DNA of 64,000 nucleotides from Sphyrna mokarran (lineage: Eukaryota). The notes beneath the pieces were generated by a model, which worked only from the letters and a program-made list of their open reading frames with translations, searched no databases and had not been told where the DNA came from. Positions within the stretch are counted from its first letter, which is position 1; the number at the start of each line of letters is the position of its first letter. Where the stretch lies: NCBI GenBank assembly GCA_024679065.1, contig JAGIQG010000020.1, positions 8,742,001 through 8,806,000 of the forward strand, written 5' to 3'. The position numbers and the translations under genes are program-made. Positions 9,048 through 50,261 of the stretch are shown here, piece after piece.

Positions 9048-9370
9048 TCAGATACAGCTGGATCTGGAGACGGTTGTTTGAAGCGGGTTTGCTTGAGTCT
9101 CGTGTTTAACCACACAGGAGTAAAGCTCGTGTGAGTTCCACTCTGAGGCTGACAGAGTCAGATAACTGCTCACACTGAACGTGTTGTCCGCCTCCTGCTG
9201 GATCCGACTGGTCTCAACTCCATTCCCTCTGACGCTGCCATCGACAGTCCATTCAATCTCCGCAACTCCTGGGTTAAAACCGCTCACCAAACACACCAGT
9301 GTCGCTATGTTCTTCGCTGTGATTTGATCCGATGAAGGCGGAAGGACAGACACAGTGGGGCTTCGTGGAT
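9048..9370 (-). CDS. IgL: IgL constant (C1-set) exon, cluster 1
   Basis: Acceptor tttccag at 9371; PRSPTVSVLPPS..ATLVCLV..EWTVDG..YSCVVKHE..SRSSCI* with both domain Cys, the Trp and the penultimate inter-chain Cys; 323 nt, TGA at 9050-9048. Confidence 0.96.
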
Positions 9371-11019
9371 CTGGAAAGTAAAGAGAAATTTTGCACATCT
9401 ATTAAGAATCGGCATAAATGATTGAATCGTTGTTTCGCCTTCTGTTTTTTTTAATCGGTATTATTCTACAAGAAGATTTTATACAGTGGAGCCTTATTGA
9501 TGCCAAATGCAAAAAAGTCAGGACTGTGGTTTCTGGAACACATACGAACTGAGATGGTTTTTCTTTTTTCCCAGCACGGACGGGAACATGCAAATAAAAT
9601 CTGATCTAAAGAAAATAGTGGAGATTTAAATATTAAAGAGAAAAATAAGACGGGAAGTTTATTGCATCCAGGTGTGATTTGAGACAATGCTGTCCAACCC
9701 AGCATGGCGACCACCGAGGATTTCAGAATAACGTTAATCCCTCAGAATTTGGGGTCAATATTGGATCCTACTTTGACTGCAACATTTCTATATTTTGCAA
9801 CTCAAAATCCTCGATTCGAAACAATTAAATCGATTGTTTGCTTCTATCACCATTTACACTTCTTGGGTACACTGGACTGATATTTGGATTAGTGTACATT
9901 CTTTGCCAGAACTTCACACCGTGTCCAACTCAGACCAACAGTAACGATATAGCGTAAATCTTAATAAATAACTCCCTGTCGAAATGGAAATTTTTGGAGA
10001 CTTTTTTTCCGTGTGAAATGTTAGAAAAGATTCCTTACAGCAAAGAGGAAGAGTTTCTCACAAAGATTGTAAACAATTCTAGCTATATAACAACATAACG
10101 TAACGACACCATCAAAAGATTAGTAATATACCAAATATGTCCTCATTATGATTTATCTCTGACACCTTATCGCCAAAGCAAATGGACTGTGAGTTCTTAC
10201 TGCGCTTAGATACGGATCCATGATTCTGACATTTGAAGAATGATTCTATTTCACAAGTACTTCATTGTGAGGATGTTCTGAAGTCGTGGTCGGCGCTAAA
10301 TCAATGCACGTTTGCATTTTCTTGCCTTTATCATTAGTAGGTATTCGTAAAGCTGAAATGGTTCTTCCCTCTTTCAGACTCCATTTATCACTTAAGTTAC
10401 CATCTATCACAGTCAATGGGAAAACGCTCAGTAAATAAGTTAAGGCATTGTAAAGCATCGAAGAAAGTACCAAATATGAATATCCAAGGATAAGGCTAAC
10501 CTTTTACAATTCGCCCTGACATTGAGGTATTATGTCGGCTACAACAACAGTATGAAGTTTGTCGCCGTCGGTGTAAACATCGATTGTGTCTGGAGCTAAA
10601 AATTCGTCTTGTTTTTCTTGAAATGTAATTTGGATGTTGAAACTGAGTCGGCAGACAAATGCCGCCAGCCCTTATCTTAATGTCGGTATCGTCTTCTTGC
10701 GCCACCAAGAATTTCGCTGAATAATCTCAAATGTCTGCACCGATGAACAGGTGTGACGATCAACTTCTATTTAAACGAAAGCGGACTCAAGTGAATTATT
10801 TTTACACCGGCATTTTCGCCAGATATGATTTCTTAAAGCAACAACTAAAATATTTAAGAGCATTTTTCTCCTTTTTGCCTCATGCTGGTCCATTTCACCG
10901 TAACATAGTCCAATAAACAAATGACTTGTAGAAAAAAAAATTAAAAAATAAAATACTATTGAGAAGGGAAGATACCCTCACCACAATTTTCCAATCATGT
11001 TTGGAGCAGGTTTGGCTCT

Positions 11020-12545
11020 CGGTGGCAGGAGGACAGATGGAATTGTGAAAGGGCGAAAGGGGGTAGCATAGTTACAGACCAGTGAATTCAACCCCACTAA
11101 AGGGAGAACAATTGGAATAAACGCGGCATAATCAAATACAGTGATTACGGCTTTGCTGGCGGAAAATCTTACCCCACGGCGTGAATTGGTATATTTGAGC
11201 AGGTAGCATGAGCTGTGAATGACTGCAATATTTTTGGTATAGTCTACATAGATTTTAACAAGGCTCTTGTTAAGTTCATATAGGGGAATGAACAGGTTGG
11301 ATCCGAAATTGGCTCACAGGCAGGAAGCAAAGGTTCCCTATATCAATGAGTGCCTCTATGAGTTTTGACAAATGATACAAAATTGGCAACGTGATTGCTA
11401 ACGAAGAAAACTGCATAATACAGGAAGATAACAATAGACTAGTCAGAAAAGTGCAACAGCGATAAATGGAATTGAAGGTGGAAACTGTGAGGAACTGCAT
11501 TTCAGGAAGGACAATTGTATAAATGGGACAATGCCGAGAAATATAAAGAAACTGTGTGCACTGAAAATGCATGTCCAGTGATCCTGAACGCAGCTGCGCA
11601 ACTGGATATGGCAGCAAAGAAGGCATATGAGGCAGTTACATTTATAAGCCCAGGTATAGATTGTTAGAACTTGGAGGTTATGTTGAAACTGCTGGAAATG
11701 TGCATAGGAAAAATGTAATTGTATAAGAGCGAGAACGGGGAGACCTAGAGGGATGTCGGCTGAAATGAAATATTTAGTTATAAGTAAGCATTGAACTGAC
11801 CAGCGTTCTTTTCTTTGGAACAGACGAGGCTGAAGAGAGAAGGCATAATATTCTGAGGTGTCTGGGCAGAATGGATCGGAAAACAGTATTGCCAATGGTT
11901 GAGCGATCGATGAGAACGGGACTTGATTTGGCGTTAGAAATGGAAGGTTTAACGGAGATTCGAAGTGAATAGTTTCATCCAGATGGTTTAGGAGATATGG
12001 AAGCTACTGCCGGAAAATCTGTTAGTGGCAAATTAATGGACACTTAAACTTACATGCAATGTGTAATCTCAATGCTAATGAATAAATGTTGGATTCTTCC
12101 TTGTGAACCAGTGCAAACATAATTGGCCAAATATTCTGTAACAATGTTGCAAAGACATATTATTTCTATGATTCTGCGAATACATTGTATTGCTTTCATC
12201 CCTCACTAAAGCAAAGGGGATACAGCGTGCATATTTATAAGGTACACTGCCGCAACTCCGACAAGAACTTCCAAACCAGCCATGTCTTCCACCAGACGCA
12301 CACAGGCGCAGCAGATGCACGGCAGCACCACCAAATGGTAAATTCCCATCAAGCCACACAGCATTACCAAAGTCCAATTGTTACCGCTTCTCCTTCACTG
12401 TCGCTCGGCCCAAAAACTCTTAACTCCCTCCCGAACAACTCTGCTGTGTAGCTATTACACATGGACCACTACTGTCTCCATGGATGTTAGGCGGGGACCA
12501 CACGAATGTTAGCTTTCTGGTCACATCCCATGAATCAATAAAAAT
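11020..12545 (+). mobile_element. Ancient LINE remnants in the J-C intron (paralogs ~26330-27875, ~46550-48010)
   Basis: Decayed CR1-like phrases (tagtctacatagattttaacaaggc; tttctttggaacagacgaggctga) followed by the 3' tail of the second LINE family. Confidence 0.6.
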
Positions 12546-13595
12546 GGCAGTAATACCCATGTTTTGTTCTCTTACTAGTCACTGACAATCACAGAGCCAG
12601 CAGCAGAGCTGAACGAGTCCACAACAATACTCAAAGACCTGATAACCTCACATCATTCCAAAAACAACTGATTGGATAGGTAGAAAATGAATCTTAATTT
12701 CTGAAGAACGCAAACATCCTGCACATTACTGATGTTTGTTACTATGTTATCCAGTAATAATACGGTCGATTATTACTGGCGGAATTCCCGCAACAGTATG
12801 GTTACATTGGATACCCAGGATTAATGCGAAATGTTAGGCGGAGCATCTTGTACTGAACGGTTTTCAGTGAATTTGGGGACCAGTGGGAATTTGGGGACCA
12901 CGCTATCCTTCCGCAGACTAAATGCAAGAAAGATCTTAAAACACAATGTTGCTTTAAGTGGAATGAAGCAGCCTGATGTAAAAGTTTCGAAAATAATTCT
13001 AGCCTTTTAAACAAGACTAAAAAAAGGCAGAATATGAAACAGCTTCAACCGTCATGTCGCTTTCATACAATTATAGAATTACAGAGCACACAAGTGGACC
13101 GACCATAGTTGTAAAACAAAACTACCGACTTAGCTCATTTCCATGCCTTTTTTTTGTTTTAAAATGTTTATCGTCTTACTAATAGTTCCACTCGCAGTGT
13201 TCATATAGCTAGGGCACTCTACTCCTAACACTGGCTAAGCGAAGGGAAATATCTCATCTTTCTAACAATCGCATTCAAATCATCACTTCGCCGACTGGAT
13301 CAGATGGGTCAAAATTCTAGGAAGTCCCAGCAGATCAGACCGTGAGCTTCCCGTGAACTGATTTTCACTCGTAATTAAAATGCCCCTTTACCCTATCACA
13401 TAACTGCACTCCAGAAAACCACTGAAGTTCTGAGCCCAGCTTTCACTGTAATATCATTGGCTGCTGAATCAAAGCATGAAAATGTTTCAGAAGAAATCAT
13501 TTTGATTTGCACTCATTCAATCCACCGTTTCGAAGTACGTTTTGTTATTTAGATAGTGTCACAAATGTTAGAGGACATTAAAGTGATTTACTTAC

Positions 13596-13943
13596 TGCTC
13601 AGATTCAACTTCGTTCCTCTCCCAAAAATGAAACTACATCCATTGCTGAGCCAAGCACAACAGTGATAATCTGCAGCGTCCTCCGACTGCACGTTGGTGA
13701 TGGTTAAATGCATCTTGTTACTCGATGAGTCCACAGACCCGGTGAATCGGTCTGGAATGTCTGAACCTCTGGTAGAGCTCTGGTACCAAACGAACACAGG
13801 GGTACTGCCGGATTTCTGCCAGTACCAGCTCGTGTCGTATCTGTTAATGCTGTCTCCCGACATGGTGCAGGTAATGGCGACAATCTTTCCCGGTGAAGAT
13901 GAAATGGATCGTGGTTGGGTCAGGACAGAACCCTCAATTGCAC
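13596..13943 (-). CDS. IgL: Germline-joined VJ exon, cluster 1
   Basis: Acceptor ttcaccag at 13944, donor GTAAGT at 13595; V-set motifs ITC, WYWQK, IPDRFTGS, EDAADYHC run in frame into the J motif FGRGTKL; 348 nt. Confidence 0.96.
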
Positions 13944-14078
13944 CTGGTGAAATGCAAAGTATTATCAGTCACACATTGTGAGATGTTGAATATAGCGTAC
14001 AATTCAGGTTCGTTGCAACACAAGTGCAAAAGCATAACGAAAAAATGAGCGTTACCTCAGCTTGACGCCCGTACTTAC

Positions 14079-14127
14079 TGTGGAAACAGAGAATCAGTGC
14101 GGCGAGAACTCCAATAGATTGTGTCAT
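14079..14127 (-). CDS. IgL: Leader (signal peptide) exon, cluster 1
   Basis: ATG at 14127, MTQSIGVLAALILCFH, 49 nt, donor GTAAGT at 14078. Confidence 0.92.
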
Positions 14128-14248
14128 CGTGAAGGTTTGGGGAGAGGAAGAAGGAAAATAAATCCAGACACGAATGCGCTTCTGAGTTCTTTCCAACCTG
14201 TCCTTAAAAAGACTCAAACAAAACAGGGCGAATGAATATTAATTACGT

Positions 14249-14270
14249 ATGCAAATTTCCTTTGACGTAA
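14249..14270 (-). promoter_or_regulatory. Ig promoter octamer (ATTTGCAT on the coding strand) with adjacent CRE-like TGACGTAA
   Basis: ATGCAAAT on + at 14249-14256, about 122 nt upstream of the ATG, in light-chain orientation; TGACGTAA at 14263-14270. Confidence 0.88.
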
Positions 14271-14629
14271 TATTAGGCCAAAAATCTCCATTTCGGTATT
14301 ATGTGATATTTGCAGAATGCAACGTTAGCCATTTTGGAAAAGAAGAAATATAAATCTCCCAATCCACATTATAACATGCAAAATGGCTCAATAACCAACC
14401 ACCCCACCCCCTCCCCCCAAAAAGAAACAAATGGTGCGGTGAAACATAAACAGATCATGGCTTGATCTGGAAACTGCAGATCACAATAAATAAATGTTGC
14501 GGATAGTAAAGAGTATAATAGCCGTAGCGTTCATGCCGCATAAATTACAGACGAAAAGTGTGAGTTGAGATTTCATGTGCGCACAGAGGAGCGTAAGTGA
14601 ATTGACCACACTCCTTATTGGTTTCTCGG

Positions 14630-14845
14630 GATAGATAGACAGACAGATAGGTAGGTAGATAGATAACTAGACAGGTAGATGTACAAAGATGGATGAGTAG
14701 AGACAGAGATATATAGATATAGAAATAGATAGATATAAATAAATAGACAGCTAGATAGCAAGAAATAGATAGATGGAGCAAGTGGTCGATAGGTAGATCG
14801 ATCGATAGATAAATAGAATGATAGAGATAGATAGATGGATATCTG
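14630..14845. repeat. Degenerate (GATA/TAGA)n microsatellite upstream of promoter 1
   Basis: gatagatagacagacagataggtaggtagatagata... Confidence 0.9.
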
Positions 14846-15721
14846 AAGTGAACGAATGATAGACAAGTCCCTAAGGACATTTTATTACCTTCCTGGAATG
14901 TGATTGAGGTGCCAAAACTGTCCACTTAGATTTATTCAAGTGTTGGAAACCCACGGCATACATAGTGAGTGAAGCGTTGGCAAAATGCTCTAGGAAACAG
15001 AGCTCTCGCATGACTTTCGTTGTTGGAGTTGAGGGGTATATTTGCTGTCATAGGAAACAATGAGTTTGAGAATGTCAATGCATTGGCCGGAATGAGCTGA
15101 AAGTAGCGGTTTTTTAAAAAATCAGATTTCTGATGGCAGTCACTCTCCTCCAACAGTACCTTCGACTCCCGCCGCGCAACAGTATTGCAGGAGTCATCGT
15201 ACAATGTTCCATTGCACCCACGTTTGAAAAATTAAACAAAATCAGACAAGCACTTTAAAGGTTGTAAGCGTTAGCTTGTCACACATGTTAACACGTGTCC
15301 TTAAAAATTTGTGAGAAGTAACATTTTGGCTATGCAGTTGGAGCTCATAGAGGAGGATAAAGAAATGAATTAATTATTTTGCGTAGAGAGCTAGCGATCA
15401 TGGTTGCAGATGCAGTTGCGTCAGTATAAAGAATTCGAGAAGATTCACCGCAGAAGGAGGGTAATCAGCCCATTGCATCCATGTCTGTTCTGTAAAGGAG
15501 CGATCGAACTTCTGTCTTGATCTTACTCCAGGTTCCAACATATTTTCCACCATTTTGACAGTGATTGTTAAATTCTTTTCCTTTCTCCTTTCATCCAATT
15601 GTCTCCGGATCATTAAGTAAGAATTTCTACATGCTTTTAAAAAGGAAAATGCTCATTAAAATAAGTGTGGTTACTCAGGAAAAGGAGTATTCGAAATTCA
15701 TAATACGAAATGAGGAAATAG

Positions 15722-17553
15722 CAAAACAAAGAACAAAGAACAAAACAGCATGGGAAACAGGTCCTTCGGCCCAACGAGCCCGCGCCGCCACCCCGATGTT
15801 CCCACCTTTACCCGTGATCCCTGTCTATGTTTATAGATCTATGGATTAAAATCCAAATTTGAGACAATTTAGGGAGAATTTGTTTTGCCAATTAGCCTAA
15901 GAGCACATCTTTGGGATGTGGGAGGAAACCGGAGCACCCGGAGAAAAACCCACGCAAGCACGGGGAGAATGCGCAAACTCCCACAGACACAGGCCCAAAT
16001 CCATGTATCTGCACAGCACAGCGATAGTCACTGAGCTGTCGTGTTGCCTACCAAATGATCCAGGTCAAGCATACACTAACGACGTGAAGCATTAGGATAC
16101 TCTCGAAAAATCCAAGAGCAGCCCTCTCACGACCCATCGCGTGTATGCCCTTGTTAGACAACAAGGCGGACCAAAGCACCTGTAGGATAAAAACAAGTAC
16201 ATCAATATCATTATCTATTTACACTCTTCCCAGGGACTCCCAAGGTTCATGACCCCTATTTTAAATCAGTTTTCTATACCCCTCCATCCCCATTCTGATC
16301 ACGTGCCCATCTAAGTATCTCTTAAATAACTCCAGAGTGCCTGCTTCCACCACTTTACTTGGCAGCGCATTCCATACCCCCACCACCCTCTATGTGAAAA
16401 AATTCCCTCCAGCATCCAAATTATACCTTACCCCCCTCACGCTAAGCCCATGACCCCTCGTGCTATTTGAGTCCATCCTAGGAAAAAGCTTAACCCTGTT
16501 TACTCTATCTATACCCCTCATAATCATGTACACCTCTATTAGATCTCCTCTAAGTCTACATCCTTCTAAGGAAAACAGCCCCAATTTGCCTAACCTCTCC
16601 TCGTAACTCAGACCTTCCACACCAGGCAACATCCTGGCAAACCTCCTCTGCACTCTCTCCAGAGTCTCCACGTCCTTCCAGTAGTAAGGCGACCAGAACT
16701 GGATGCAGTATTCCAAATGAGGTCTAACCAACGTTTTATACAACTGCAAAATTAAAGGCCATCGCTTGTACTCTATACCCCTTCCTATAAAGGCTAGCAT
16801 ACTATATGCTTTCTTCACAATCTTCTCCACCTGCTCTGCCACCTTCAGAGGCTTGTGCACCTGCATTCCCAAGTCCCTCTGAGTTTCTATATTCTTAATA
16901 GGTCTACCCTTTATCATATACCTCCCCCCTACATTCTTTCTCCCAAAATGCATCATCTCACATTTATCAGGATTGAATTCCATCTGCTATCTACCTGTCC
17001 GAGCTACCAGCCAATCTATGTCTTGCTGCATCGCCTGACAATGCTCCTCACTATCCGCAAGTCCAGCCATCTTTGTATCGTCTGCGAACTTGCTGATCAC
17101 TCCACTTACTCTCTCTTCCAAGTCATTTATATGTATTACAAATAGAAGAGGTCCCAGTACCGAGCCCTGCAGCATACCACTAGTGACCGACCTCCAGCTA
17201 GAAAGACACACTTCCACTATTACTCTCTGTCTCCTATTACTAAGCCAGTTACTTATCCATCTAGCTATTGTCCTTGTATCCCATGAGCCTTGACCTTTTC
17301 AACTAACCTCCCATGAGGGACTTTGTCAAACGCCTTACTGAAATCCATATAGATGACATCAACGGTTCGCCTTTCGTCGACCGTTTTCGTCACCTCCTCA
17401 AAAAATTCTACCAGATTCGTAAGGCACGACCTCCCCTTAACAAAGCCATGATGCGTATCCCTAATCAGATTGCAACGCTCTAAGTGCCTATACTTCCTGT
17501 CTCTAAGAATCCTCTCCAACATCTTCCCTACCACTGACGTCAAACTCACCGGC
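15722..17553 (-). mobile_element. Young 5'-truncated CR1 LINE (subfamily B), frameshifted RT; present only in this unit
   Basis: ORFs 17265-17549 (HGFVKGRSCLTNL..MDFSKAFDKVPH), 16987-17217 (QGSVLGPLLF..KFADD) and 16390-16983; tail aaaacaaagaacaaagaac; empty site at ~32160 and ~52670. Confidence 0.93.
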
Positions 17554-17799
17554 GTATAATTTCTCCACCTCGCTGTAGAATAGATAGATAATATTTATTG
17601 CTTGGAGGTGAAGAGAAAGAAGGAAGCGAGTAAGGTAAAGCAATTCGAAGCACCAGGTCAATGCTACTGATAAAACGATCAGAACTAAAGGCTGTCAAGT
17701 CGTTCGGACATGATGGAGCTGGGAAGGTACCTTTGCGGAGAATGGATGTAGGCGGGGTGGGCCGTTTGGCCTCCTTCTGCATTATAGTGATTTTACAAT

Positions 17800-19025
17800 T
17801 TCATGAGATCGGGAAATAACATATCTAACTCCTCTATTCAAGAAAGGAAAGAGACAGAAAACATAATTGCATGTCACCCAATTAGCCTAACATCTGTCAA
17901 AAGTTAAATACTCGAGTCTACTATCAGAAGATTATAGCAGGGCACTTATAATTATGCAGAGTCAACACGGTTTTGTATAATTGAAGCCATACTTTCCTAA
18001 TTTGTTATACTTACTGGAGCAACTTATTAATAACGTGAATAAAGAGAAACCTGTAAACTTGGATTTATGAAAAGTTTTTAATAAAATCCTGCTTCAATAC
18101 ACATTATGACAAGCCAAATAGGAGCTCATCATGTATGAGGGAATGTTTATCACGAATCGAGCACTGGTTCGCTTACAGAAACAGAGAGGTGAGGAACTGA
18201 GTCATTTTCTGTGGCGGGGAATGTGGGGGGCCTGGAGGGCAAACTGTAGTCGGTGGTATGTGACATCTAGGGCCTCAACTATTTTCAATTTATAGAAATG
18301 ACCTGGATGATGGGACGGATTTATTGCAATTCTTTTCTCACAACATTAATACAGGGGAAAAAGTAAATTGTGAAGTTAGCATAAATAATATACAAAGTGA
18401 GTTAGATAGGCTAATTGAGTGGCAAATAGAAGCAGGCGGAGTACAATGTGGTAAAATGCGAATTCGTCCACTTTGGCAGGAAGAATGGAAAGCAGCAAAT
18501 TATTCACACGGAGATGAGAGCGCAAAGATCTGCAACACTAAAGGATCTGGATGCCTGGAACATGATTCACAAAACTTCGGCATAAAGCTGTAAGTGATTA
18601 GGAAAGCAATTGCAATGCTGTCACTTATTGCAAGTGGGATGGAATGTAAAAGTAGGGAAGATTCGCTACAAATGTGTCGGCATTGGTGTGAACACATCTG
18701 ACGTACTTTCCTGTTGGCACGCCTACCTTAGAACGGATACAATAACACCAGCAACAGTTCGGAGAAATCAGCTGAAATGGATATCATATAGGGAAAGGTT
18801 GAACAAGTTGAACCTGTACCCATTAGAGTTTAGAAGAATTAAAGGTGATCCTTCTGGAGCACCTACTATCCTCAGGGGAATTGAGATGGTGAAGACTGAG
18901 GAAGTGCTTCCCGTCGAAAGAGACTGGAACGAGGGGACATGAATTCAAATAAGAGGTTTTCTTCATAAGAGATGAAGATAAAGAGAATTTCATTCTCTGT
19001 GAGGGCCTGTGGAACTCTCTTTACC
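17800..19025 (+). mobile_element. Decayed CR1 LINE fragment
   Basis: SYRERLNKLNLYPLEFRRIKGD (ORF 18610-18942) and other CR1 remnants. Confidence 0.7.
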
Positions 19026-19029
19026 AGGA

Positions 19030-20690
19030 ATATCCAATCGTGAATGGTAGTGGGTAATTAAAAAACTCACTGGAGAAGAAGGCATCACAAATTCCCCATC
19101 CTCAATGAGCAGTGAAAAAGATCAGACTAAAGCCTTCGCAACAATCTTTTGTCACAAGTGCCAAGTGGATGATCTATCTTCGTCTTTTACAAAAATGGTT
19201 AGCATCACAGATGTCAACCTTCAGCCAATTCAATTCGCTCCACGTGATATCAAAAAATGGCCGAACGCGTTGCATACTGCAAAGGCTTTGGGCCCTAACC
19301 ATATTCTGCTGACAGTGCTGAAGACCTGTGCTCCAGGCTATGCGATCCCTTCAGTCGAGTTGTTTCAGTACATCTACCCGGCATTGCAGAAAATTGCCCA
19401 GTTATGTCCTCTACTCAAAACGGAGGGCTATCCAACTTTGTTCATTAGCCATCAGGCCACTCCAGCTAATCAGTAAATTGATGGAAGAGATCATTAGCAA
19501 GGCTATCAAACGGCAGGAACTTAGCAGGAACCTATTCATTGACACATGGTTTGAATTCCGTTAGTCACTCAGCACCTGACTTCATTACAGCCTTGGGTCA
19601 AACATGGACAAGAGTAATTGAACGTCAGATGTGAAATGACTGCCTCTGATGTCAAGGCAGCACGTATGGAACTAAGGAGCCCGAGCAATGTTGGAGTCAA
19701 TTAGAATCAGAGGGAAAATTCTACGCTGGCTGGAGTCATACCTACCAAGAGGAAGAGTCTTGGCATGGTTGGAGTTCAATCCTCTAACTTGAGCACTTTT
19801 CTGTAGGAGTTTTTCAAGGTGGTGTCCGAGGTCCAACCATCTTCAGCTGCGCTATCGTTGACCTCCCTTGCAGCAGTGGACAGTACCATTCCCCCATCCT
19901 CAGAGACTGAAGCCGTGCATGTCCAATTGCAGTAAGCCCTGGACAATATCGAAGTTTGGGTTGACAAATGGCAAGTAATCTTCGTGACAAAGTAGTGCCA
20001 GAAAATGACCATCTCCAACAACAGAGAATCTAACCATTGTCCCTTGACGTTCAATAAGAACATAAGGACATAAGAAATAGGAGCAGGATTAAGCCATCTA
20101 GCCCCTCGAGCCTGCCCCGCCATTCAATGAGATCAGAAGCTGAACTGGTTTTGACATTCAAATATGGTGACTGCAAGAGCAGGTCAGACGCTATGAATTA
20201 TGTGGCAAGTATCCCACTTGCTGACTCGCCAAACCTGTCCAGTATCTGCGAGACACAAGTCAGGAGTGTGGTGGAATACTTTGCATTAGCCAGGAGAGTG
20301 CAGCTTCGATAGCTTTCAAGAAGCTCACAACATCCAGGACAAAACTTGACTGGCATTTCTTCCACAAACTCCCTCCGCCACGATGAACAGAGGCAGTAGT
20401 GTGTACCATCTGCAAGGTGCATGCAAAAACCCATCCAGGCTCCATAGGCAGCATCTTACAAAATCACATTGTTCCCATCCAGAAGGACAAAGGCAGCAGA
20501 TACATGGGAACATCACCATCTTAGCCCACCCTTCCAACTCATTCGCAATTCGACTTGGCGATATATTGCTTACCTAGACCATAGGGTCTGAGCTGATTCA
20601 ACAAAGCAGTTCACCATCATCATCTCGAGGGCGGTTAGCGGTGAGGGATACATGCTGGTCTAGCCACCGATGCCCACAATTCGTAAAAAA
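19030..20690 (+). mobile_element. Decayed LINE of a second family (paralogs ~32985-35370, ~55035-57420)
   Basis: KAFATIF..CQVDD..AKALGPNHILLTVLKTCAP..ISKLMEEII, typical non-LTR ORF2 remnants. Confidence 0.7.
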
Positions 20691-25107: not shown

Positions 25108-25113
25108 TTTATT
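25108..25113 (-). terminator. Polyadenylation signal AATAAA, cluster 2
   Basis: tttatt on +; proximal copy at 25246-25251. Confidence 0.7.
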
Positions 25114-25303
25114 ACACAGTAGTATCAATGACACTACACTGAAGCTCTGATCCATTGAGGATGAACAAGTTAAATTGAAACTAAGGGAATCAGCCGAACT
25201 GCTACAAACTGATGAAATGCTTGAAATGTTCCACTACTTGCGAAATTTATTTTCAAATGACACTTTACTAATGCAGAATACAAAAATGCATTAGATGCAT
25301 GAA

Positions 25304-37700: not shown

Positions 37701-38236
37701 CTTCTCTTCTATTTCCTGCCCTACTGCTATTTCTGTGATACTATTTGTAGTATTTGTCATACAAATAGTATCATACTTCTCCCCAATGAAAACTAAAGCA
37801 AAATATCTGTTCTCTTCATCTGCAATCTTTGTTTGCTACAAATTCTCCAGACTCAATTTCTATCATCTATCGCCCACACTTGCAACTTTTTTATTTGATC
37901 GTTAAACTTTACAATTTGAAGTTGATGTTTAGTGTCATAAGTAGTAACACTGCTATAAAATTACTGTGAAATCCCCAGTCGCTGCAGTCCGGCAGCTGTT
38001 TGGATACACTGAGAGAGAATTAGCAACACTAAGCACTATGCCAAAGGCAAGAAATAATTGAAAGAAACTCTGGGAAACAAATGAACTGGTCTGGAAGCAT
38101 CTGTGGAAACGGAAACAGAGTGAAAATTGCGCTTCCAAAAGTGCCAGCTGAAAATATATACAATGAGTTTCGTTCACTTGAACTTCACTGAAAAAGTACA
38201 GGAAATCACTCCAATTATACCCTCAAGATGAAAATT

Positions 38237-38788
38237 GGATAGATTGATGAAACCGATGACTGCATGAAATGTTACTCGTGCACTGGGGTGTGGTTACTTG
38301 GACAGCTCTTTGAAAGAGTATACTGGGTCAAAGATATTTTTGTGTTGTATTCTTCTGTGAAATGGTTGGGAACTGAGTTCAATATAGCCATTTGTTATGA
38401 TCAGGTTTAAATTCGTTTAAATTATGATGAAGCAGATTCACAAGTTTCTTCTAAAAGTCAATAGAAACTAAATACGATTGAAAGATTGTGACGAGAGAAT
38501 GTCTTGGATTAACTATGCATCATCACTTCTCTTTGCTTCTGTCCAAAACAATTGTCCACTGATCCTGAGTCTAAGATCCCGTGTTCTGGATTTCACAAGC
38601 AGGGCAAACATCCGCCTGATCTTTTCAGTTTCAAGGGCAGGGTCTTTCCGATAGTCGGTTTCTCTGTCCATCAACTCAATTCCCCGCTCTTCTTTGACCC
38701 AGTGCACGCTTTGAAAGAGCTGTTCAAGTAATCACACTCCAGTGCACGATTAACATTTCATGCAGACATCGGTTTCATGAATCTATCC
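38237..38788. repeat. 98-bp inverted repeat (arms 38237-38334 and 38691-38788)
   Basis: ggatagattgatgaaaccg...ctgggtcaaaga vs tctttgacccag...cggtttcatgaatctatcc, about 90% identical. Confidence 0.9.
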
Positions 38789-39539
38789 TCCTCAGTCATT
38801 GGACAAATGGTGGGGAAAAACATAAGCCAAAAGGAAGACATGCACACACTTCTGCGGAGGAGGTACCGCGTTAGAGGACTGACGGCCAACCGTTAGTGCA
38901 GCAACTTGTAGGTTCGAGCGGTGACCACAGTTCGGGTTGCAACTGATCTCGAAAGACGAAAGTTGGTGTAGGCCAAATGGCATAGGTTTTTGGGGCTTTT
39001 GGTACCGAGGGAAGCGGTAGTGTTCCCCTTGCCCTACACCAGCACTCAGCTCCCTTGTTGCATTATCTTGACCCAGACAGAGGAATTATTGTAGTACCGA
39101 CAGGATGAAGCAGTTGACTGATTCTTAATTGGTCACTTACGGGCGTCAATGGGCTCAAATGTGCGCTCACCGCTCAAAGAATTTGTTCTTCCCAATAGTT
39201 GGAGGAGATTTCTAATCATCACAGTAGAATTGTTCAGTGAGGCTGTGGTGAGATAGAACTTCGTGCTTTCAGAGTGCATAAAAAGCCTAATATACTTTCA
39301 GATGATGCCTACAAGGGGGAGCACGTGGATGGGCAAAAGAATGGGAGCCAGGGACGTATTGTCGAATTGCTGGAATGTGAGCAGGAACAGTAAACATTGC
39401 AGACAAACTTGTAGACATTATTTGATAAAGAATAATGGAACCTGATCACGAGAATAGGCACAAGCAACTGATTAATGAAGGAGAATTGTTGGTTTATGTG
39501 TAGAACCGCGTCAAAGACCGACGCCAGTCCGAAAAGTAT

Positions 39540-39815
39540 GAGCATAGTGGTTAGCACTGCTGTTCCATACCGCCAAGAACCCTGTTTCGATTCCCGCCTT
39601 GAGTCACTTTGTGTTCACATACTGCACGTTCTTCCCGTGTCTGCGTCGGTTTCCTCCATATGCTCCCGTTGCTTCCCATAGTTCGAAAGATGTGCCATGC
39701 AAAATTCTCACAGGCGGCGGGGTGTGGCAACTAGAGGTTTTCACTGTAACTTCATTGCAGGAATTGTAGTTTGGATTACAACTGATAGTTGAAAGTTTAT
39801 TGTGACAATAACAAA
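39540..39815 (+). mobile_element. V-core SINE (paralog ~61505-61780)
   Basis: tagtggttagcac...gtttcgattcc...gcacgttcttcccgtgtctgcgt. Confidence 0.75.
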
Positions 39816-40361
39816 GGAATTGTAAGCATCTCTTAAAAACAGTAGTACTTTGCTCTCGTTACTTTGAATAGAATGTAACTTTGATAAAGGTCATATCAGT
39901 AATGTGGCAGAAGCAGAAGCAGAGTGATTGTGGGGATTCAATGCTGAGTTGTTGAAACGATTGTAAGGATCTGGGATTAGTAATATCTTCAAGTAGTTTA
40001 GAGAAGGAATGTCAACAGGAGATCGGCAATAGTTTACAAGGAAAGAGGAACAAGGCTGTTTTCAAAGAGAGGTTTGATAGTAATCGATGTGAAAGAAAGA
40101 ACACTGTCTGAGGAGAGATAGCAGTTCATGATATCAGCGAAACTGGGGTAAAACAAAGAAAGTTAGATGGTCAGTAATTTATTGGAAACATGGTCCACAT
40201 GGGTCTAATACAGAAAATGAATTATGGAAGGCAATGAGGGAATATATGAAAAAAACATTCAAGTCAACTATGATGCATGCGAAGTAGTGTTCCGTCATTT
40301 CACTCCGATATAACTTCATTCTAAGGAAAGCGTACGCTCTATTTTTTCTAGATTATGTTAT

Positions 40362-42630
40362 TAGAACAAAGAACACAGAAAATTATAGCGCAGGAACAGG
40401 CCTTGGGCCTTCCAAGCCTGTACCGATCATGCTACCTCATGACTAAAACCCTCTACCCATCCAGGGACCATATCCCTCTAATTTCATTCTATCCATCTGT
40501 TCGTCAAGGCGTTCTTTTAAAGTCACCATCGTATCCGTTTCCACTACCTCCCCAGCAATGAGTTCCAGGCACTCATTACCCTCTGTGTGAAAATTCTGTC
40601 CCGTACATCTCCCTTAAACCTTGCCCCAGGCATCTTAAACATATGTCCCCTTGTAATTGACCCTTCTACCTGGGAAAAGGCATCTGACTATCCGCTCTGC
40701 CCATGCCTCTCATAATCTTGTAGAATTCTATCAGGTCACAACTCAACCTCCTTCGTTCTAGTAAGAACAAATCAAGTTTCTCCAAGCTCTCATCATAGTT
40801 GATGCCCTCCATACCAGACAACATACTGATAAATCTTTTTCTGTACGCTTTCCAAAGCCCCCGCACCCTTCTCGTAGTGTGGCGACCAGAATTGAACACT
40901 ATGTTTCAAATGTGGCCTAAATAAGGCTCTACAAAAATGTGGCTTCTCCATTTTTAAACCGAATGCACCTCCCGCTGAAGGCAAGAATGCCGTTTGCCTT
41001 CTTGACTACCTTCTCCTCCTGCATTGCCACTTTCATTGACCTGTGTACCGGTACCCCTAAACCTAACCCTTTGCCTATCAATAATCTTAAGGGTTCTGCC
41101 ATTTACTATTTCTTTTCTATTGCATTAGACCTTCCAAATGCATTACCTCATAGTTGTCGGATTAAATTGCACCTGCCAACTGATCCAAGTCCTGCAGTAT
41201 CCTCCGATGGTCCTCATTGCTGTCTGAAAATCCAGCAACTTTTATATCGTCTGCAAACTTACGAATTAATCTGGCTACATTGTCCTCCAAATCATTGATA
41301 AAGATATTACAAACAGCAACGGTCTCAGCACTGATCTCTGAGGAACACCACTTGTCACAGTCCTCCTTTCAGAAACGTACCTTTACATTGCTACCCTGTC
41401 TCTTCTTTGACGAAGCTGGTTTTGTATCCATCTTGCCAGCTCATCTCTGACCCTATGCGACTTCACCTTCTGCATTAGCCTGAAATGAGGACCTTGTCAA
41501 TGGCCTTACTTATGTCCATGTAGATAACATCCACTGCCCTACCCCCATCAATCATCTTCGCCACTTGTTCGAAAAACTGGATCAAGTTAGTGAGACACAA
41601 CCTTCCCTACACAAACCATGTTGCCTCTCACTAATATGTCCACTTATTTCCAAGTAGAATAAATCCTGTCTCAAAAATTCCTCTCCAAAAATAGCCCTAC
41701 CAATAATGTTAAGCTCACCAGCCTGTAATTTGGATTATTCTTGTTAACCTTCTTAAACAAAGGAACAACAATGACCATTCTCCAGTCCTCTGAGACCTCC
41801 CATGTAGTCAGTGAAGATACAAAGCCCCAGCAATTTTCTCCCTTGCCTTTCTCAGTACTCTGGAGTACATCCCATCAGTCCCTGGGGACTTGCTTACCGT
41901 AATATTTCTCAAGAACCCCATACTTTCTGCATTTTGATCTCAACATGACCCAAAGTAACTACACACCCTTTTCCATACTCATCATCCACGAAGTCCTTTT
42001 CTTTGGTAAATACTACCGCACAATACTCATTTAATACCTCGCCCATTTCCTCTAGCTCCATGCATAGATTCCTCCCTTGTTCTTGAGTGGGCCAACCCTC
42101 TCCCTGGCTACCCTCTTGTTCTTTACATATGTATAAAAAGCCTTGGGATTTTCCTTAGTCCTGCTTGCCAAAGCTTTTTCGTGGTCCCTTTTAGTCTTCC
42201 TTACTCGTTGCTTAAGTTTCTGTCTTTTTTCCTTATTCCACACTTGCTTCACGTGTTCCTATTTCCTACCTTTGACAAATGTTTCCTTCGCTCCTTTGAC
42301 AATGCTCACAATATCTCTCCTTATCCAAGGGTCCCAAAATTTCCCATACTTATCCTTCATCTTTACAGGAATGTGCCGGTCCTGAATCTCTATCAACTTG
42401 CACTCGAAGGCCTCCCACACGCCAGACGTTGATTTTCCTTGAAACATCGTCCCCCAATCTACATTCGTTAGTTCCTACTTAATATTGCTGTAATTAGCCT
42501 TCCCCCAATTTAGCACCTTAACTTGAGGACTAACTTAATTTTATCCATCAGTATCAGTAGTTATTGAATTGTGGTCACTGTTTCCAAACTGCTGCCTTAC
42601 AGAAACATCAATCACCTGGCCGGGCTCATT
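40362..42630 (-). mobile_element. Decayed CR1 LINE
   Basis: SLEKLDLFLLERRRLSCDLIEFYKIMRG; RTKENPKAFYTYVKNKRVARERVGPLK. Confidence 0.88.
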
Positions 42631-44159
42631 AGTGGAAATAATTTCTCTGGATCTATACTATCGCACTAGTTGATCATTCGAAATACGTCAATTAGGGACA
42701 TAGAGTGCAAGAGAAGGCAGACAGTGAGTGACTTAGCAGAAAAGTGTCACTGTTCCAATCTGTATTCTCATTCATGCTTTTAACTTTCTTCACTATAAGC
42801 GCTCGGTTTCGCAAAGCCACACAAATTCTTGCTTCAGCCATAGCCTCATATCAGTCAAAAAACAAGAGATCCTGAAAATTTTTCAACTAGTTTTGTGCCA
42901 AATATCAGCGTTGGAAAGTCATCCCTTCTGAAATAGATTGTGCCTCTTGCTGTCTCTATCTAAGGCATGTCCAAGTAAGGACAAAGTTCTTGCTGAGGCA
43001 GTGTTCCTCCAGATGTATTGGTATTCAATATACATCCATCATGCAGCATGTTTCAAATTGTTAGAACATGCTCTTGATTCCATCTACCCTCAGGTGCACT
43101 ATTCTAAAATACTGCTTCCACAATCCTTGCTAAAGCAAACGTGTCTTTTTTATTACTAGATTGCAACTTTAGAAACATTGAGTTTCTTTTAGTGCCTGAG
43201 TGAGGCACTCTCGTAGGAGATTCACCAGGATGATGCCTGAGCTGTGATTATTTTTTTATAGAGCAAGGAAAACTGAGGTGTTATCTCATCGAGGGGCACA
43301 AATTATGAACGAAATAGATTGAGAGAAAGCTTTCACCTCAGTACAGCGGGCACTAACCACGGGGCAAAGATTTAAAGGAGCAGGCGATTTAGAGAAGATT
43401 TGAAGAAATACTTCTTCAGCCAAAAGGTGTTGGGAATCTGGAACTTGCTGTCTGCAATGGTGACGGAGCAAGGAACCTCAGTGCATTTGAGAAATATATT
43501 GATGAGGAATGAAAAAGTAAACCGCTGGTTGGCACACAGACGCGAAGTGCCTCATTCTGGCCTGGTTTCCTCCAACAGCTTTAAAAGATAATACCTAGCA
43601 CGTTTAAACGGTCGTTTTCAAAACTGAACCCTTCAGCAATTAATTCACCCTGACGAATAGCCCTATACACCTTCATGATATCAATGCATCTACGGCAATC
43701 GTACCGCCTCGCCCGTCACGGAATCAGAGCTGACAGCGGCAGAGAAAGGAAATGTCCCTTGACCTCTGGCGGGAAGTTCCGGTCTCGATCCAGAGAGGCC
43801 GTAAAACTCCCGCAGCTCAGTGTAAAAACCTAAATGCAGCACTTCAGCTGTGATCTGATCAGGGCTTTAGAAAACAAGAAGCATTACTTCCCCACTTTTT
43901 AATTTCAATGCTCTTGTGATAAAGAGAGGTATTCTATTTGATTTCTAATTTACCTTCTGTTCATGCATAGGAATGTTCATTCAAAACATCTCGCCTCTTA
44001 ACGTTACGTAAATTTTTGGAGCAGCTCGCTTTCATATTTTGGTCACAGAATCACACAATTCACTGGTCCATTCACTTCGTTTATCTATGAATACCGAAGG
44101 GTCAGCCAGTTTTCAGTGCCTCCTGAACTTAATCTGATCTGCCGATATGTCACTTTGTC

Positions 44160-44320
44160 ATTTTTAACATTTAGGCAAAACTTGGACAGGTACATGGGTG
44201 AGAGATGTGTGGAGGGATACGATTCAATTGCAGGTCAGTGGGGCTAGGCAAAAAATAGTTCGGCACAAGCAAGACGGGCCAAAAGGCTTCTTTCTGAGCT
44301 CTGATTTTCTATGCTTCTAT
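44160..44320 (+). mobile_element. Short CR1 3' fragment
   Basis: ttggacaggtacatgg...gggccaaaaggc...ttctatgcttctatg tail. Confidence 0.6.
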
Positions 44321-44860
44321 GTTTATGAATCACTCTAACCTTCAATTCGATCGGCAAAATAATCTTGTTCCAGAAATGATCCTCGGAAACCGACATTTAT
44401 CTCCTTTGTTAGTAAAGCGCCCACTTCAACATAATCATTATAGGCCAATTAAAGTTATTGGACAATATATTAAAAGAATGACTTGCAGTACCAGAACCTA
44501 CGTTGCAACTGCTGCATTAAAAAATGAGGACGGAGTTTGTCCTGAATATTTGTAACCAGGCGGATTAGAAATGTCTGCCCGTTTTTGTGAATCTTGAGAC
44601 ACAGTTCAACTCTTTCATTACAATGGCAGAATATAATTAGTTCCATTAAAAAATATGTTGCAATATTACTTCATGCTGTTAATTTAATGTCATCGATCGT
44701 CTCCTTGTTGTGCCTAGGTGTCATTGGCTTTTAAAAAGAATGTGCAGAATATCACAATATAATCTCATCATTTAATTCCCTTTAAAATGCAACCATTATT
44801 TTTTTTTTAAGGGGAAGAGACAGAATAACAAAACAACAGTCGAGATAACGGTATAATGAT

Positions 44861-44866
44861 TTTATT
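44861..44866 (-). terminator. Polyadenylation signal AATAAA, cluster 3
   Basis: tttatt on +, about 190 nt past the stop. Confidence 0.7.
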
Positions 44867-45056
44867 ACACAGCAATATCAATGACATAAAACTGAATCTT
44901 TGATTCAGGGTGAACAGAGTTAAATTGAAACTAAGGGAATCAGCTGATCTGCTACAAACTGTGATGAACTGTTTGAAATATTCCACGATTTGTGGAATTT
45001 ATCTTGAAATGAAACTTTACTAACGGCAGAAAACAAAAATGCATTAGATGCTTGAA

Positions 45057-45379
45057 TCACATACAGCTGGATCTGGAGATGCTTGTTTGAAGCGGGTTTG
45101 CTTGAGTCTCGTGTTTGACCAGACAGGAGTAAAGCTCGTGTGAGTTCCACTCTGAGGCTGACAGAGTCAGATAACTGCTCACACTGTACGTGTTGTCCGC
45201 CTCCTGCTGGACCCGACTGGTTTCAACTCCATTCCCTCTGACGCTGCCATCTACAGTCCATTCAATCTCCGCAGCTCCGGGGTTAAAACCGCTCACCAAA
45301 CACACCAGGGTCGCCATGTTCTTTGCTGTGATTTGATCCGATGAAGGTGGAAGGAGAGACACAGTGGGGCTCCGTGGAC
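45057..45379 (-). CDS. IgL: IgL constant exon, cluster 3
   Basis: Acceptor tttccag at 45380; PRSPTVSLLPPSSDQ...YSCLVKHE...SRSSCM*; 323 nt. Confidence 0.96.
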
Positions 45380-48300
45380 CTGGAAAGTAGAGACAATGAT
45401 CGCACATCTATTAAAAATCAACATAAAACACTGAATCGTTGTTTCACCTTCTTCAGATTTTGTTTAAAATCGCTATTATTCTACAAGAATGTATACATTT
45501 TATATAGTGGAGTCTTATTGATGCCAAATGCAAAAAGGCTGGGACTCTGGTTTCTGGTTTCTGGAAGACATACAACCTGAGAAGGTTTTCCTTTTTCCCC
45601 TGCACGGACGGGAACATGCAAATATTAAAGAGAAAAATAAGAAGGAAGGTTCCGTGCATCCACTTGTAATCTGAAGGAACGCTGTCCTAGCGGGCGTCAC
45701 GGTCACCGAGAATTCCAGAATAAGAATTGTTTGCTTCTGTCACCATTTACACTTAACTGACACAAATCCTACATACTGGACTGATATTTGGGTTTGTGTA
45801 CATTTTTTGCCGTGGCCTCACACCGTGTGCCGCCCAGACCAACAAGTGAGGATGTAGCGTAAATCTTAACAAATAACTTCCTATCGCAATGGAAATGTTT
45901 GGAGACATTTTTTCCGACTGTCACAAACAATTTGTTACAACTAAGAGGAAGAGTTTCTAATCAATATTGTAAACAATTCTAATACATAACAGCATCACCT
46001 AATGACAACCTCAAAAGGCCAGTAATAAAGCAAACGTGTCCTCATAATTATTTATCTCTCATACCTTGTGGCCAAAGCAGATGGACTGTGAGATCTTATT
46101 GTGCTTAGATAGGGGACCCGTGATTCTGACAATTGAAGAATGATTCTGCATCACAAAGACTTAATTGTGGGCATATTCTGAGATCGTGGTCGGCGCTCAG
46201 TCAATGAAAGTTTGCATTTTCTTTTCTTTGTCATTAGTCGATATTCGCAAAGCTGAAAGGGCGTTGTCTCTTTAAGTGACCATTTACCGCTTAAGTTACC
46301 ATCTATCACAATCAATGGGGAAACGCTGAGTAAATACGTTAAGACATTGTAAGGCATCAAAGAAAGGGTTCAGATATGAATATTCATTTCAAATTAAAAG
46401 GACAAGGCTAACCTCTTACAATTCGCCCTGACATTGTGGTATTATGTCTGCTACTATAACAATATGAGGTTTGTCGCTGTCGGCGTAAAAATAGATTATC
46501 TTTGGAGCTAGAAATTCGTCTTATATTTTGAAATGTAATATTCATCCTGTCGCAGAGAGGATGACTAATGAAATTGTGACCGGGCTAAAGGGGATGGCAT
46601 AGTTATAGACTAGTGAACATAGCCTCACTGAAGGGAGAACGAATGGAATAAACGCGGCGTAATCAAATGCAGCAATCACGACATTGCTAGCGGAAAGTCT
46701 TATCCCAATGCGTGAATTGGTATTTTTGAGCAGGTATCATGAGCGGTGAATGACGGCAATATTTTTGCTATAGTCTACATGGATTTTAACAAGGCTCTTG
46801 TTAAGTTCACACATTGGATGAACAGGTTTGATCCGAAATTGGTTCAGAGGCGGAAACAAAGGGTCCGTATATCAATGAGTGCCTCTATGATTGTTGTTAG
46901 ATGAAACAAATTTGGCAATGTGGTTGCGAACGAAGGAAACTGAATAATGCAGGAAGACAGCAATGGACTAGTTAGATAAATGCAACAGCGGCAAATGGGA
47001 TTAAATGCCGAAAAGCGTGAGCAACTGCATTACTGGAAGGCCAACAAGACAAGCGAGTACACGGCATAAATGGGATAATGCCTTTAAATGTGGCGAAACT
47101 GAGTGACTTGAAAATGCATGTCCACAGATCCAGAAGGTGACACAGCAAGTGTTATGGTAGCAAAGGAGGCATGCGGGGCACTTATATTTATGTGCCGGTT
47201 GTTAGAACTTGGAGTTTATGCTGAAACTGTTGGAAAGATGCATAGAAAAAATGTAATTGTACGGGAGCGAGAACAGGGAGATCTGGAGTCAGCTGAAATG
47301 GAATATTTAGTTATAAGTAAGTATTGAAATGTCCTTTTCTTTGGAACAGAAGAGGCTGAAGACAAATCTAGTTGAAGGCATAATATTCTGAGGTGTCCGG
47401 GCAGAATGAATCGGAAAACAGTATTGCCAATGGTTGCGGCTCCATAAGTACGGAGCTTGGATTTAGCGTTAGAAGTAGAAAGGTTAGCGGAGATTGGAAG
47501 GGAATAGTTTCACCCAGAGTGTTTAGGGGTGTGGAACCTATTGTCGGAAAGTCTGTTAGTGACAGATTAATGGACATTTAAATGCACATACAATGTGTAA
47601 TCTGAAGACTAATTAATAAATGATGGATTGTTCCTTGTCAACCAGCGCAGACACGATTGACCAAGTAGATAGTAATAATGCTGCAAAGATATATCATTCG
47701 ATGATTCCACGAATATATTGTATTGTTTTCCTCCCTCATTCAGGCACAGGGCTACAGTGTGCAAATTTATAAGATACAGTGTCGCAATTCCAACATGAGC
47801 TTCCAAACCAGCCATGTCTTCCACTGGATGAACACACGCGCAGCAGATGCACGGCAGCACAACCAGTTGGTAAATCCCCATCAAGTTACACAGCCTACCA
47901 AAGTAGAACTATACTGCCTTTCCTTGGCGAAAAACTCTTAGTTCCCTCCTTAACAGCTCTGTGGTGTACCTATTACAAATGCTTTCTGATCATATCCCAT
48001 GAATCAATAAAAATGGCAATAATCCGCACGTTTTGTTCTATTACAACTCACTGACAATCACAGAACCAGCAACAATCTGAACAAGTCCACAACAATATTC
48101 AAAAACCTGGCAACTTATTCCGAGACATTCCAAAAGAACTGATTGGGTAGAAAGAAAATGAACCGTAATTTCCGACAAAGCAAATATTCTGCGCATGCTT
48201 GATGTTTGTTAATGTGCGATCCAGTAACAATCAGGATCTATTATTACTGGCTGAATTCTCGCAACAATATTGTTATTTTGGATACCCGGGGTTAATGCGA

Positions 48301-48449
48301 AATGATAGGCTGAGAATCTTGTATTGAACATTTTCAGTGAGTTTGCGGACGAGTGGGAGTGAGTGGCTATTGTTCCGCAGACCCAATGCAAAAAAGATCT
48401 TAAAACATAATGTTGCTTTAAGTGGAATGAAGCAGCCTGATGTGAACGT

Positions 48450-49012
48450 TACAGAACCTTAGTTTGGCCGCACTTGGAATACAATTTTCAATTCTGGTCG
48501 CCACACTATCAGAAGGATATGGAATCTTTGCAGAGGGTACAGAAAAAATTTGACAGGATGTTCTCTGGTATGGAGGGAATTAGCTATGATGAGAGGTTGG
48601 ACAAACTTCGTTTGTTCTGACTGGAGCGTTGGAGTTTGAGGAGACCTGATAGAAGTCTGCAAAGTTATGAAAGGCATGGAAAGAGTGGATAGTCAGAAGT
48701 CTTTCTCCCCCCAATTTGGAAGAGTCAGTTGCTAGGGGGCATAGATTTAAGGTGCGAGGGGCAAACTTTAAAGGAGATGTACGAGGCAGATAGTTACAGA
48801 GGATAGAGTGCCTGAAATTCCTTGCCGGAGGCGGTATGGAAGCAGATACGTAGTGACTTTAAAAGGGTGTCTTGACAAGTACACGAATAGAATGGAAATA
48901 GAGGGTTATGGTCGCCGGAAGGGTAGGATGTTTTAGTTAAGTCGGCAGCGTTGTCGGTGCAGACTTGGAGGGCCAAAGGGCCTGTTCCTACGCTGTAACT
49001 TTCTTTGTTCTT
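48450..49012 (+). mobile_element. CR1 3' fragment in the J-C intron of cluster 3 only
   Basis: cacttggaatacaattttcaattctggtcgccacac...ttctttgttc tail; empty site at ~12985 and ~28314. Confidence 0.85.
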
Positions 49013-49583
49013 TTGAATGTAATTCCAGCGCATTAAATCAGGCTACAAGAGCAGCGCGTGACACAGACTGAACCAGCATGTCGCTTTCATAAAATCATGG
49101 AATTCTAGAGCGCCTAAGGGACCGACGTTGGCTTGTAAGAAAAACCTGCTCACTTCGCTGATTTCTATGTCTGTTGTTTTTCACTGTTGAAATGTTTATC
49201 GTCTTGCTAATTATAGTTCCGCTCGCGGTGTTCATACAACTAGGGCACTCTGCTACTAACACTAACTGAGCGAATGAAAACATCCCATCTTTCTAGCAAT
49301 CCGCATTCAAATCATCTCCTTGGGCTGCCGACTGGATCAGGTGGCGCAAAATTCTGGACAGTCCCAGCAGAGCAGACCGGGATTGCACACACTCCAGAAA
49401 AGTTCTGAACCCAGCTATCGCTGCAATATCATTGGTTGCTGAATCAAAGATCCCCCATAAAAATATTTTATGACCAATCATTTTGATTGTCACTAATTCA
49501 ATCCACTTATCCGACCGTTTCGAGGAAATTTTGTTCTTAAGACAGCGTCACAAATGTTTGAGACATTTAGGTGATTTACTTAC

Positions 49584-49934
49584 TGTCCAGATTCAACTTC
49601 GTTCCTCTCCCGAAAATGAAACTATATGGACTGCTGCTATATCGAGCACCACAGTAGTAATCTGCAGCATCCTCCGACAGCACGTTGGTGATGGTTAAAT
49701 GCACCTTGTTACTCGATGAGTCCACAGACCCGGCGAATCGATCTGGAATACCCGAAGCCATGCCATAGCTCTCGGACCAAACAAGCACAGGGGCACTGCC
49801 GGGTTTCTGCCAGTACCAGCTCGTGTAGTAGCTGCCAATGCTGCCTCCGGACATGGTGCAAGTGATGGTGACGGTCTTTCCCGGTGAGGACGAAATGGAT
49901 CCTGGTTGGGTCAGGACAGGATCCGCAATCGCAC
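49584..49934 (-). CDS. IgL: Germline-joined VJ exon, cluster 3
   Basis: AIADPVLTQPGSISSSPGKTVTITC...WYWQKPG...DYYCGARYSSSPYSFIFGRGTKLNLD; acceptor at 49935, donor GTAAGT at 49583; 351 nt. Confidence 0.96.
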
Positions 49935-50070
49935 CTGGTGAAATGCAAAGTATTGTCAGTCACACACTGTGAAATGTTAAATATAGCTTACAATTCAGGT
50001 TCGTTAAAACACAAGCGCAAAAGGAAATAACGTGAAGAAAATGTTACTTCAGTTTGACGCCCGTACTTAC

Positions 50071-50119
50071 TGTGAAAACAGAGTATCAGTGCGGCGAGAA
50101 CTCCAATCGATTGTGTCAT
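50071..50119 (-). CDS. IgL: Leader exon, cluster 3
   Basis: MTQSIGVLAALILCFH, 49 nt, donor GTAAGT. Confidence 0.92.
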
Positions 50120-50240
50120 GGCGAAGGTTTGGGGAGAGGCAGAAGGCAAATAAATCCTGACACGAACGCGCTTCTGAGTCCGTTCCAACCTCTCCTTAAA
50201 AAGATTCAAACACGGCAGGGCGAATGAATATTAATTACGT

Positions 50241-50261
50241 ATGCAAATTTCCTGGCACGTG
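50241..50261 (-). promoter_or_regulatory. Ig promoter octamer plus E-box CACGTG, cluster 3
   Basis: ATGCAAAT at 50241-50248; CACGTG at 50256-50261. Confidence 0.88.

Follow-up and report, generated by a model that had tools for sequence, protein, structure and literature searches.

Are the fused genes of shark light-chain loci relics of a time before RAG, or products of rearrangement in germ cells? The question, posed by Lee et al. in 2000 (PMC2193156), is raised again by a 64,000-nt stretch of the Sphyrna mokarran genome (G000:C772:8742001-8806000; the whole stretch is called the window here), which carries three immunoglobulin (Ig) lambda light-chain genes whose variable (V) and joining (J) segments are fused and followed by a constant (C) exon. 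According to two reviews, all cartilaginous-fish lambda genes studied are germline-joined in this way (PMC4279169, PMC5192425). The window is read here as a set of joined type II/NS3 genes in a 20-cluster locus whose last cluster is split and likely undergoes RAG-mediated rearrangement in B cells of related sharks. The probability of this reading is put at roughly 0.8, and it appears just as probable that a RAG-rearranged lambda lineage survives in sharks.

The three window genes have the order leader (L)-VJ-C, lie on one strand (minus), and give spliced frames without internal stops, with products of 239, 238, and 240 amino acids; all splice donors are GTAAGT and all acceptors CAG. This agrees with an earlier note on this DNA, which had placed the C exons 16.3 and 19.8 kb apart (measured, 16,256 and 19,753 bp) and had seen V and J fused in frame with no heptamer-spacer-nonamer between them. 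A scan of the window for recombination signal sequences (RSSs) gave three weak hits (6449, 45827, and 45829), none of which separates a V from its J. This negative result is meaningful because the same kind of scan detected V-12 and J-23 signals at all seven kappa clusters examined in this genome; at the sigma clusters examined, the V-12 signal was found in four of four cases. When compared with three sandbar-shark lambda chains, the window genes show 69-89% identity in V and 91-95% in C (91-94% for the C of gene 1), as against 36-44% and 43-47%, respectively, for kappa-, sigma-, and sigma-2-like comparators, whose isotype labels were assigned in this analysis. Both domains group with named shark lambda chains in the V, C, and combined trees, and human lambda-6 chains are among the top PDB matches to the gene 3 V at the level of single domains. 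A kappa or sigma identity was ruled out by the identity comparison and the combined V+C tree, and these same data uphold the assignment to germline-joined type II/NS3 lambda, for which no RAG step is required.

From sequence comparison, the joints are taken to be germline and not somatic, since near-identical joints occur in three tandem units and joints are matched in gene models of other species; that of gene 3 is almost unchanged in the next two clusters beyond the window. The units are 77-97% identical with indels, and their V exons differ, so that a false duplication or assembly artefact was ruled out. The class and anatomy of these genes are already known, and the genes are ordinary: they share V-J-C clusters, joined VJ, and an octamer promoter with the shark lambda genes described as type II, NS3, or sandbar lambda (PMC4279169, PMC5192425, PMC2193156). 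They are likely transcribed from their octamer promoters and then spliced, with no recombination step. In genes 1 and 3, but not in gene 2, another exact octamer (window 9588 and 45616) precedes the C exon by 218-237 bp.

What sets the locus apart from known shark lambda is that one of its 20 clusters is split and carries a 23/12 RSS pair; it also has 20 clusters, compared with six lambda loci described for the nurse shark (PMC4279169, PMC5192425, PMC2193156). On contig C772, 20 V genes and 21 C exons were found in 464 kb assembled around the matches. They form two blocks, one of 7 clusters at 7.94-8.06 Mb and one of 13 clusters plus an orphan C exon at 8.72-8.99 Mb; the gap between them (8.114-8.662 Mb) was mostly covered by genome searches alone. 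No additional Ig exons were present in 40-70 kb of flanking sequence. C-to-C spacing is 16-30 kb across the locus, some clusters are inverted, and leaders were found by leader pattern at 13 of the 20 clusters. V and J are germline-joined in 19 V genes, 2 of them broken, with third complementarity-determining regions (CDR3s) of 5, 8, 9, 11, or 12 amino acids. The earlier note had considered the locus free of any need for RAG, which stands for the three window genes but is not supported for the locus as a whole, given the split state of the last cluster.

This cluster has the order V-23RSS, 12RSS-J, C, with a 258-bp spacer between V and J (Table 1). Its RSSs are placed exactly at the coding ends; when up to 3 mismatches are allowed, the 464 kb contain only 10 matches, these two included. 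The polarity, V-23/J-12, is that of lambda, whereas kappa in the same genome is 12/23. In genome searches, the split V and the spacer are single-copy; a word-based search with the split V alone gave no match. The ESM Atlas returned generic V-set clusters only. The V carries a TGA at the framework-2 tryptophan, and the octamer has one mismatch. Over this cluster, 8 of 23 sequencing runs were examined (X2, X4, X5, X9, X12, X13, X15, and X23), of which X2, X12, and X13, although not annotated as RNA, are treated as such on account of their splicing at exon borders. A contig from X2, a run on S. mokarran from another study, has L spliced to V, an unbroken V-spacer-J, and J spliced to C, with 0 differences from the assembly. 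The split state and the stop codon of the S. mokarran copy are therefore real. Raw whole-genome shotgun data of the same species (X23) contributed six reads, none spanning the stop or the spacer.

Cartilaginous-fish lambda, as now defined, has a germline-joined VJ, which this cluster does not. All the same, it is placed as a lambda isotype, and not as kappa or sigma, by its sequence. In a combined V+C tree of 42 rows, chosen from larger V and C sets, a single clade (95/90) unites 25 shark rows, among them the split gene, the window genes, and sandbar lambda; within it, two joined lineages together are the sister group of the split lineage (99/96). Approximately unbiased tests reject a clade of joined genes only (p 0.023), as well as a grouping of the split gene with kappa (p 0.004) or with sigma/sigma-2 (p 0.019). 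Its V is 43-50% and its C 60-61% identical to sandbar lambda. The C tree omitted 14 near-redundant rows.

Orthologues of the split gene were found in Mustelus (C 94%), Heptranchias, Stegostoma, Hemiscyllium, Rhincodon, Chiloscyllium, Scyliorhinus torazame, and Callorhinchus. Protein records for this lineage are XP_078083771.1 in Mustelus and XP_067861670.1 in Heptranchias. The S. torazame copy is likely split too, because its gene model (P0053) reads through the spacer into J, matching 41 amino acids of spacer and J at 73% identity (E 7e-17). For two further species, the state of the cluster could be read from DNA: a single contig over L041:2560-3799, without a joint and with TGG at the position of the stop, was obtained from X15 (organism E) and likewise from X9 (organism C). 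Spliced contigs from X12 (organism E) and X13 (organism B) likewise have TGG, and here V and J are joined in frame. The two CDR3s, counted by hand, are 12 amino acids long in X12 and 10 in X13; 8 bases after V are common to both, and the sequences then diverge. In X12, J is apparently untrimmed and preceded by CC, as P nucleotides would be, and these two bases are probably P nucleotides. In organism E, the cluster is split in DNA (X15) and joined in the RNA-type contig (X12), with one contig each, which points to somatic rearrangement. Compared with L041:3029-3076, X13 has changes clustered near CDR1 and CDR2, including a compensated indel, a pattern that resembles the tandem hypermutation of sharks.

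Several points weigh against this reading. There is one joint per species, taken from assembled contigs; the DNA of organism E has a depth of 2 in X15, so low that a joined paralogue might have escaped detection, and separate samples supplied the RNA and the DNA of this organism. The P-nucleotide reading of X12 uses the S. mokarran J start as its reference. In organism B, the DNA-type contigs X4 and X5 run into a repeat-like end at L041:3195, shortly ahead of the second cysteine of V, and do not agree with X13, which may reflect a second copy, a broken allele, or mixed labels. In S. mokarran itself, the split gene is broken, and its RSSs and octamer are imperfect. As for the phylogeny, the combined tree was computed under LG+G4 without a mixture model, the choice of its groups followed inspection of the single-domain trees, the separate V and C trees support lambda monophyly weakly, and no named lambda-2 protein turned up in the searches or was included in any tree.

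A rival explanation is that the split cluster is a dead relic everywhere, that the joined transcripts of organisms B and E come from germline-joined paralogues or alleles, and that all expressed shark lambda is germline-joined. Besides the low depth in organism E, this explanation can draw on the stop in the S. mokarran copy, where only an unrearranged contig was seen, and on joints elsewhere: the elephant-shark (Callorhinchus) orthologues, known from gene models and from another two nr records, keep the same 11-amino-acid joint with a single residue changed, which is consistent with germline joining, and the Orectolobiform models all have 10-amino-acid joints. It is nevertheless unlikely, given that the tryptophan is kept in the split copies of organisms C and E, that neither X15 nor X9 yielded a joined contig at 80% likeness, that the spacer is still recognizable in the catshark, and that the X12 and X13 joints differ in length.

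In the preferred reading, RAG, acting in B cells and following the 12/23 rule, would cut the split cluster where it is intact, and the X12 and X13 joints would be the somatic products. The split state would be ancestral, and the joined lineages would stem from several separate germ-line joining events followed by tandem duplication, accompanied by purifying selection on the frameworks and homogenization of the C exons. If the split state is ancestral and joining irreversible, at least two joining events would be required among the S. mokarran clusters. Several of the lambda joints are old, because the lengths found here are seen again, lineage by lineage, in further sharks and in rays: they are conserved within V lineages, as in the case of a 5-amino-acid CDR3 common to Carcharhinus, Cetorhinus, Heterodontus, and Narcine.

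The reverse course, in which an RSS-flanked fragment entered the germ line of a carcharhiniform ancestor at the former V-J joint and so split a joined lambda gene, is very improbable. It is true that the split state is nested among lineages that are joined or apparently joined, including the elephant-shark orthologue and the sister lineages, and that an unweighted count favors one gain over several losses. Yet the coding ends lack a 5-bp target duplication, the spacer has no match elsewhere in the genome, and the polarity is the canonical 23/12 of lambda. The joined state of Heptranchias and the Orectolobiformes, both with 10-amino-acid joints, is known from protein models alone, and germ-line joining is a recurrent process, repeated germ-line rearrangement with at least five joining events having been described for nurse-shark kappa (PMC2193156). 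If it were true, such an insertion would have repeated in nature the RAG-transposon event from which rearranging receptors arose.

The split cluster lies within the lambda array, in a lambda-syntenic region. TOP3B (7.0 Mb), a GP1BB-like leucine-rich repeat gene (8.71 Mb; L002:206-901, near 8712206, about 10 kb from the array edge), a paxillin exon (9.07 Mb), and IFT81 (26.1 Mb) share contig C772 with it; in human, TOP3B and GP1BB are linked to IGL. That the split gene represents a separate isotype, lambda-2, so far unfound in cartilaginous fish and placed by chance at the array end, is very improbable: lambda-2 has 23/12 signals and 1-2 genes per species (PMC5985310), which would suit a single-copy gene with the identities to sandbar lambda given above, but the explanation is weakened by the nesting of this gene among joined shark lambda in both supported nodes, by its CDR1 of 8 residues (hand count; CDR2, 3), which exceeds the 5-7 residues of lambda-2 (CDR2, 2-3; PMC5985310), and by the presence on the same contig, though 17 Mb away, of IFT81, which flanks true lambda in sterlet and gar (PMC5985310). 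With teleost and gar lambda-2, the split gene has in common the 23/12 RSS and the low copy number (PMC5985310, PMC11223323). Another parallel is sterlet IgL3 lambda, a single IFT81-linked V-J-C cluster with 23/12 RSS (PMC5985310). IgL3 is described as having no junctional variability and no joined array, in contrast to the two shark joints of different length; sterlet lambda sequences were not among the tree rows.

How a B cell chooses among these clusters was a further point of the earlier note, which had held that the choice must be regulated transcriptionally. Transcriptional choice is a reasonable inference; our best guess is that single promoters might be activated stochastically and that a working receptor feeds back on this process. 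For shark IgH, a limited stochastic activation subject to feedback has been proposed (PMC2435157). No shared enhancer or other non-coding element common to divergent clusters was found: blastn of the gene 3 and split-gene units against other units gave only promoter/V and C exon matches and one weak 64-bp match, a search that is blind to short motifs. The diversity of the window genes would come from many germline copies together with hypermutation, which is known for NS3. A similar source of diversity has been described for skate type I (PMC2192082).

Across six neighboring clusters including the window genes, the ratio of nonsynonymous to synonymous differences (pN/pS) is 0.38 in frameworks and 1.17 in CDRs, the CDRs being roughly drawn and the pairs non-independent. 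The lambda C exons are 92-96% identical across clusters with unrelated V lineages, while the introns do not align, which suggests gene conversion or exon-level homogenization. The orphan C exon (L003:440-750, near 8722489 of C772) has an altered 5' part and lies beside a repeat; no V or J was found nearby. The compactness of the array, which the earlier note had singled out, is not unusual, since in the same genome most kappa C exons are about 25-30 kb and sigma C exons 15-25 kb apart.

Table 1. Features of the window (positions within the 64,000 nt) and of the split cluster (positions on C772 and L041)
Feature	Position	Strand	Remarks
Tandem duplication units, about 16-22 kb	1..64000	.	Array extends past the window on both sides
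Gene 1 lambda C exon including stop	9048..9370	minus	Pfam C1-set
Gene 1 germline-joined VJ exon	13596..13943	minus	CDR3 11 aa, no RSS, Pfam V-set
Gene 1 leader exon (49 nt)	14079..14127	minus	
Gene 1 promoter octamer	14249..14256	minus	Exact, 122 bp upstream of ATG
Gene 2 lambda C exon including stop	25304..25626	minus	
Gene 2 germline-joined VJ exon	29104..29448	minus	CDR3 11 aa, no RSS
Gene 2 leader exon	29603..29651	minus	
Gene 2 promoter octamer	29773..29780	minus	Exact, 122 bp upstream of ATG
Gene 3 lambda C exon including stop	45057..45379	minus	
Gene 3 germline-joined VJ exon	49584..49934	minus	CDR3 12 aa, no RSS
Gene 3 leader exon	50071..50119	minus	
Gene 3 promoter octamer	50241..50248	minus	Exact, 122 bp upstream of ATG
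Split lambda cluster, last of array	G000:C772:8979701-8986160 = L041:2701-9160	plus	174 kb past window end
Split cluster L	L041:2701-2749	plus	
Split cluster V	L041:2916-3224	plus	
Split cluster 23-spacer RSS after V	L041:3225-3263	plus	Heptamer + nonamer mismatches 1+2
Split cluster 12-spacer RSS before J	L041:3455-3482	plus	Heptamer + nonamer mismatches 2+1
Split cluster J	L041:3483-3521	plus	
Split cluster C	L041:8832-9160	plus	

Further observations concern other Ig genes. At the sigma clusters L042-L045 (C838), the V exon is immediately preceded, in all four cases, by an additional RSS-like site with a 12-nt spacer that lies on the other strand. The kappa cluster L056 has two identical C exons 1.76 kb apart (C1548:81703180 and 81704938). 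On the same contig, L046 (C1548:111434001-111444000) consists of a single-exon VJ followed by three C1 domains and resembles the UrIg genes of PMC12227049. In Chiloscyllium punctatum, the divergent light-chain-like protein P0183 falls outside lambda, kappa, and sigma in the V and C trees.

No prior report of a split shark lambda gene was found in the literature searched (including the available text of PMC12227049, PMC11223323, PMC13433984, PMC6795676, PMC8188548, and PMC6901605); subscription literature was mostly outside this search, and earlier publication is possible. A split and probably rearranging lambda cluster runs against the review-level view of an all-joined shark lambda. A close counterpart is nurse-shark NS4/kappa, in which split and joined clusters likewise occur in one isotype, a state attributed to RAG activity in germ cells (PMC2193156). 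Most NS4 genes are split and are close kin of the joined ones (PMC2193156), whereas almost all lambda genes here are joined, with one divergent split lineage, and, unlike in NS4, there are joints common to sharks and rays.

Shark lambda is the usual example of a non-rearranging antibody isotype. A split 23/12 gene inside the clade of joined lambda argues, on the question of Lee et al., for an origin of the fused genes by rearrangement in germ cells, and implies several separate germ-line joins. The split cluster also makes it possible to test directly how a B cell decides between clusters that need RAG and neighbors that do not, within one isotype and one locus, and the broken copy of S. mokarran provides a natural loss-of-function comparison.

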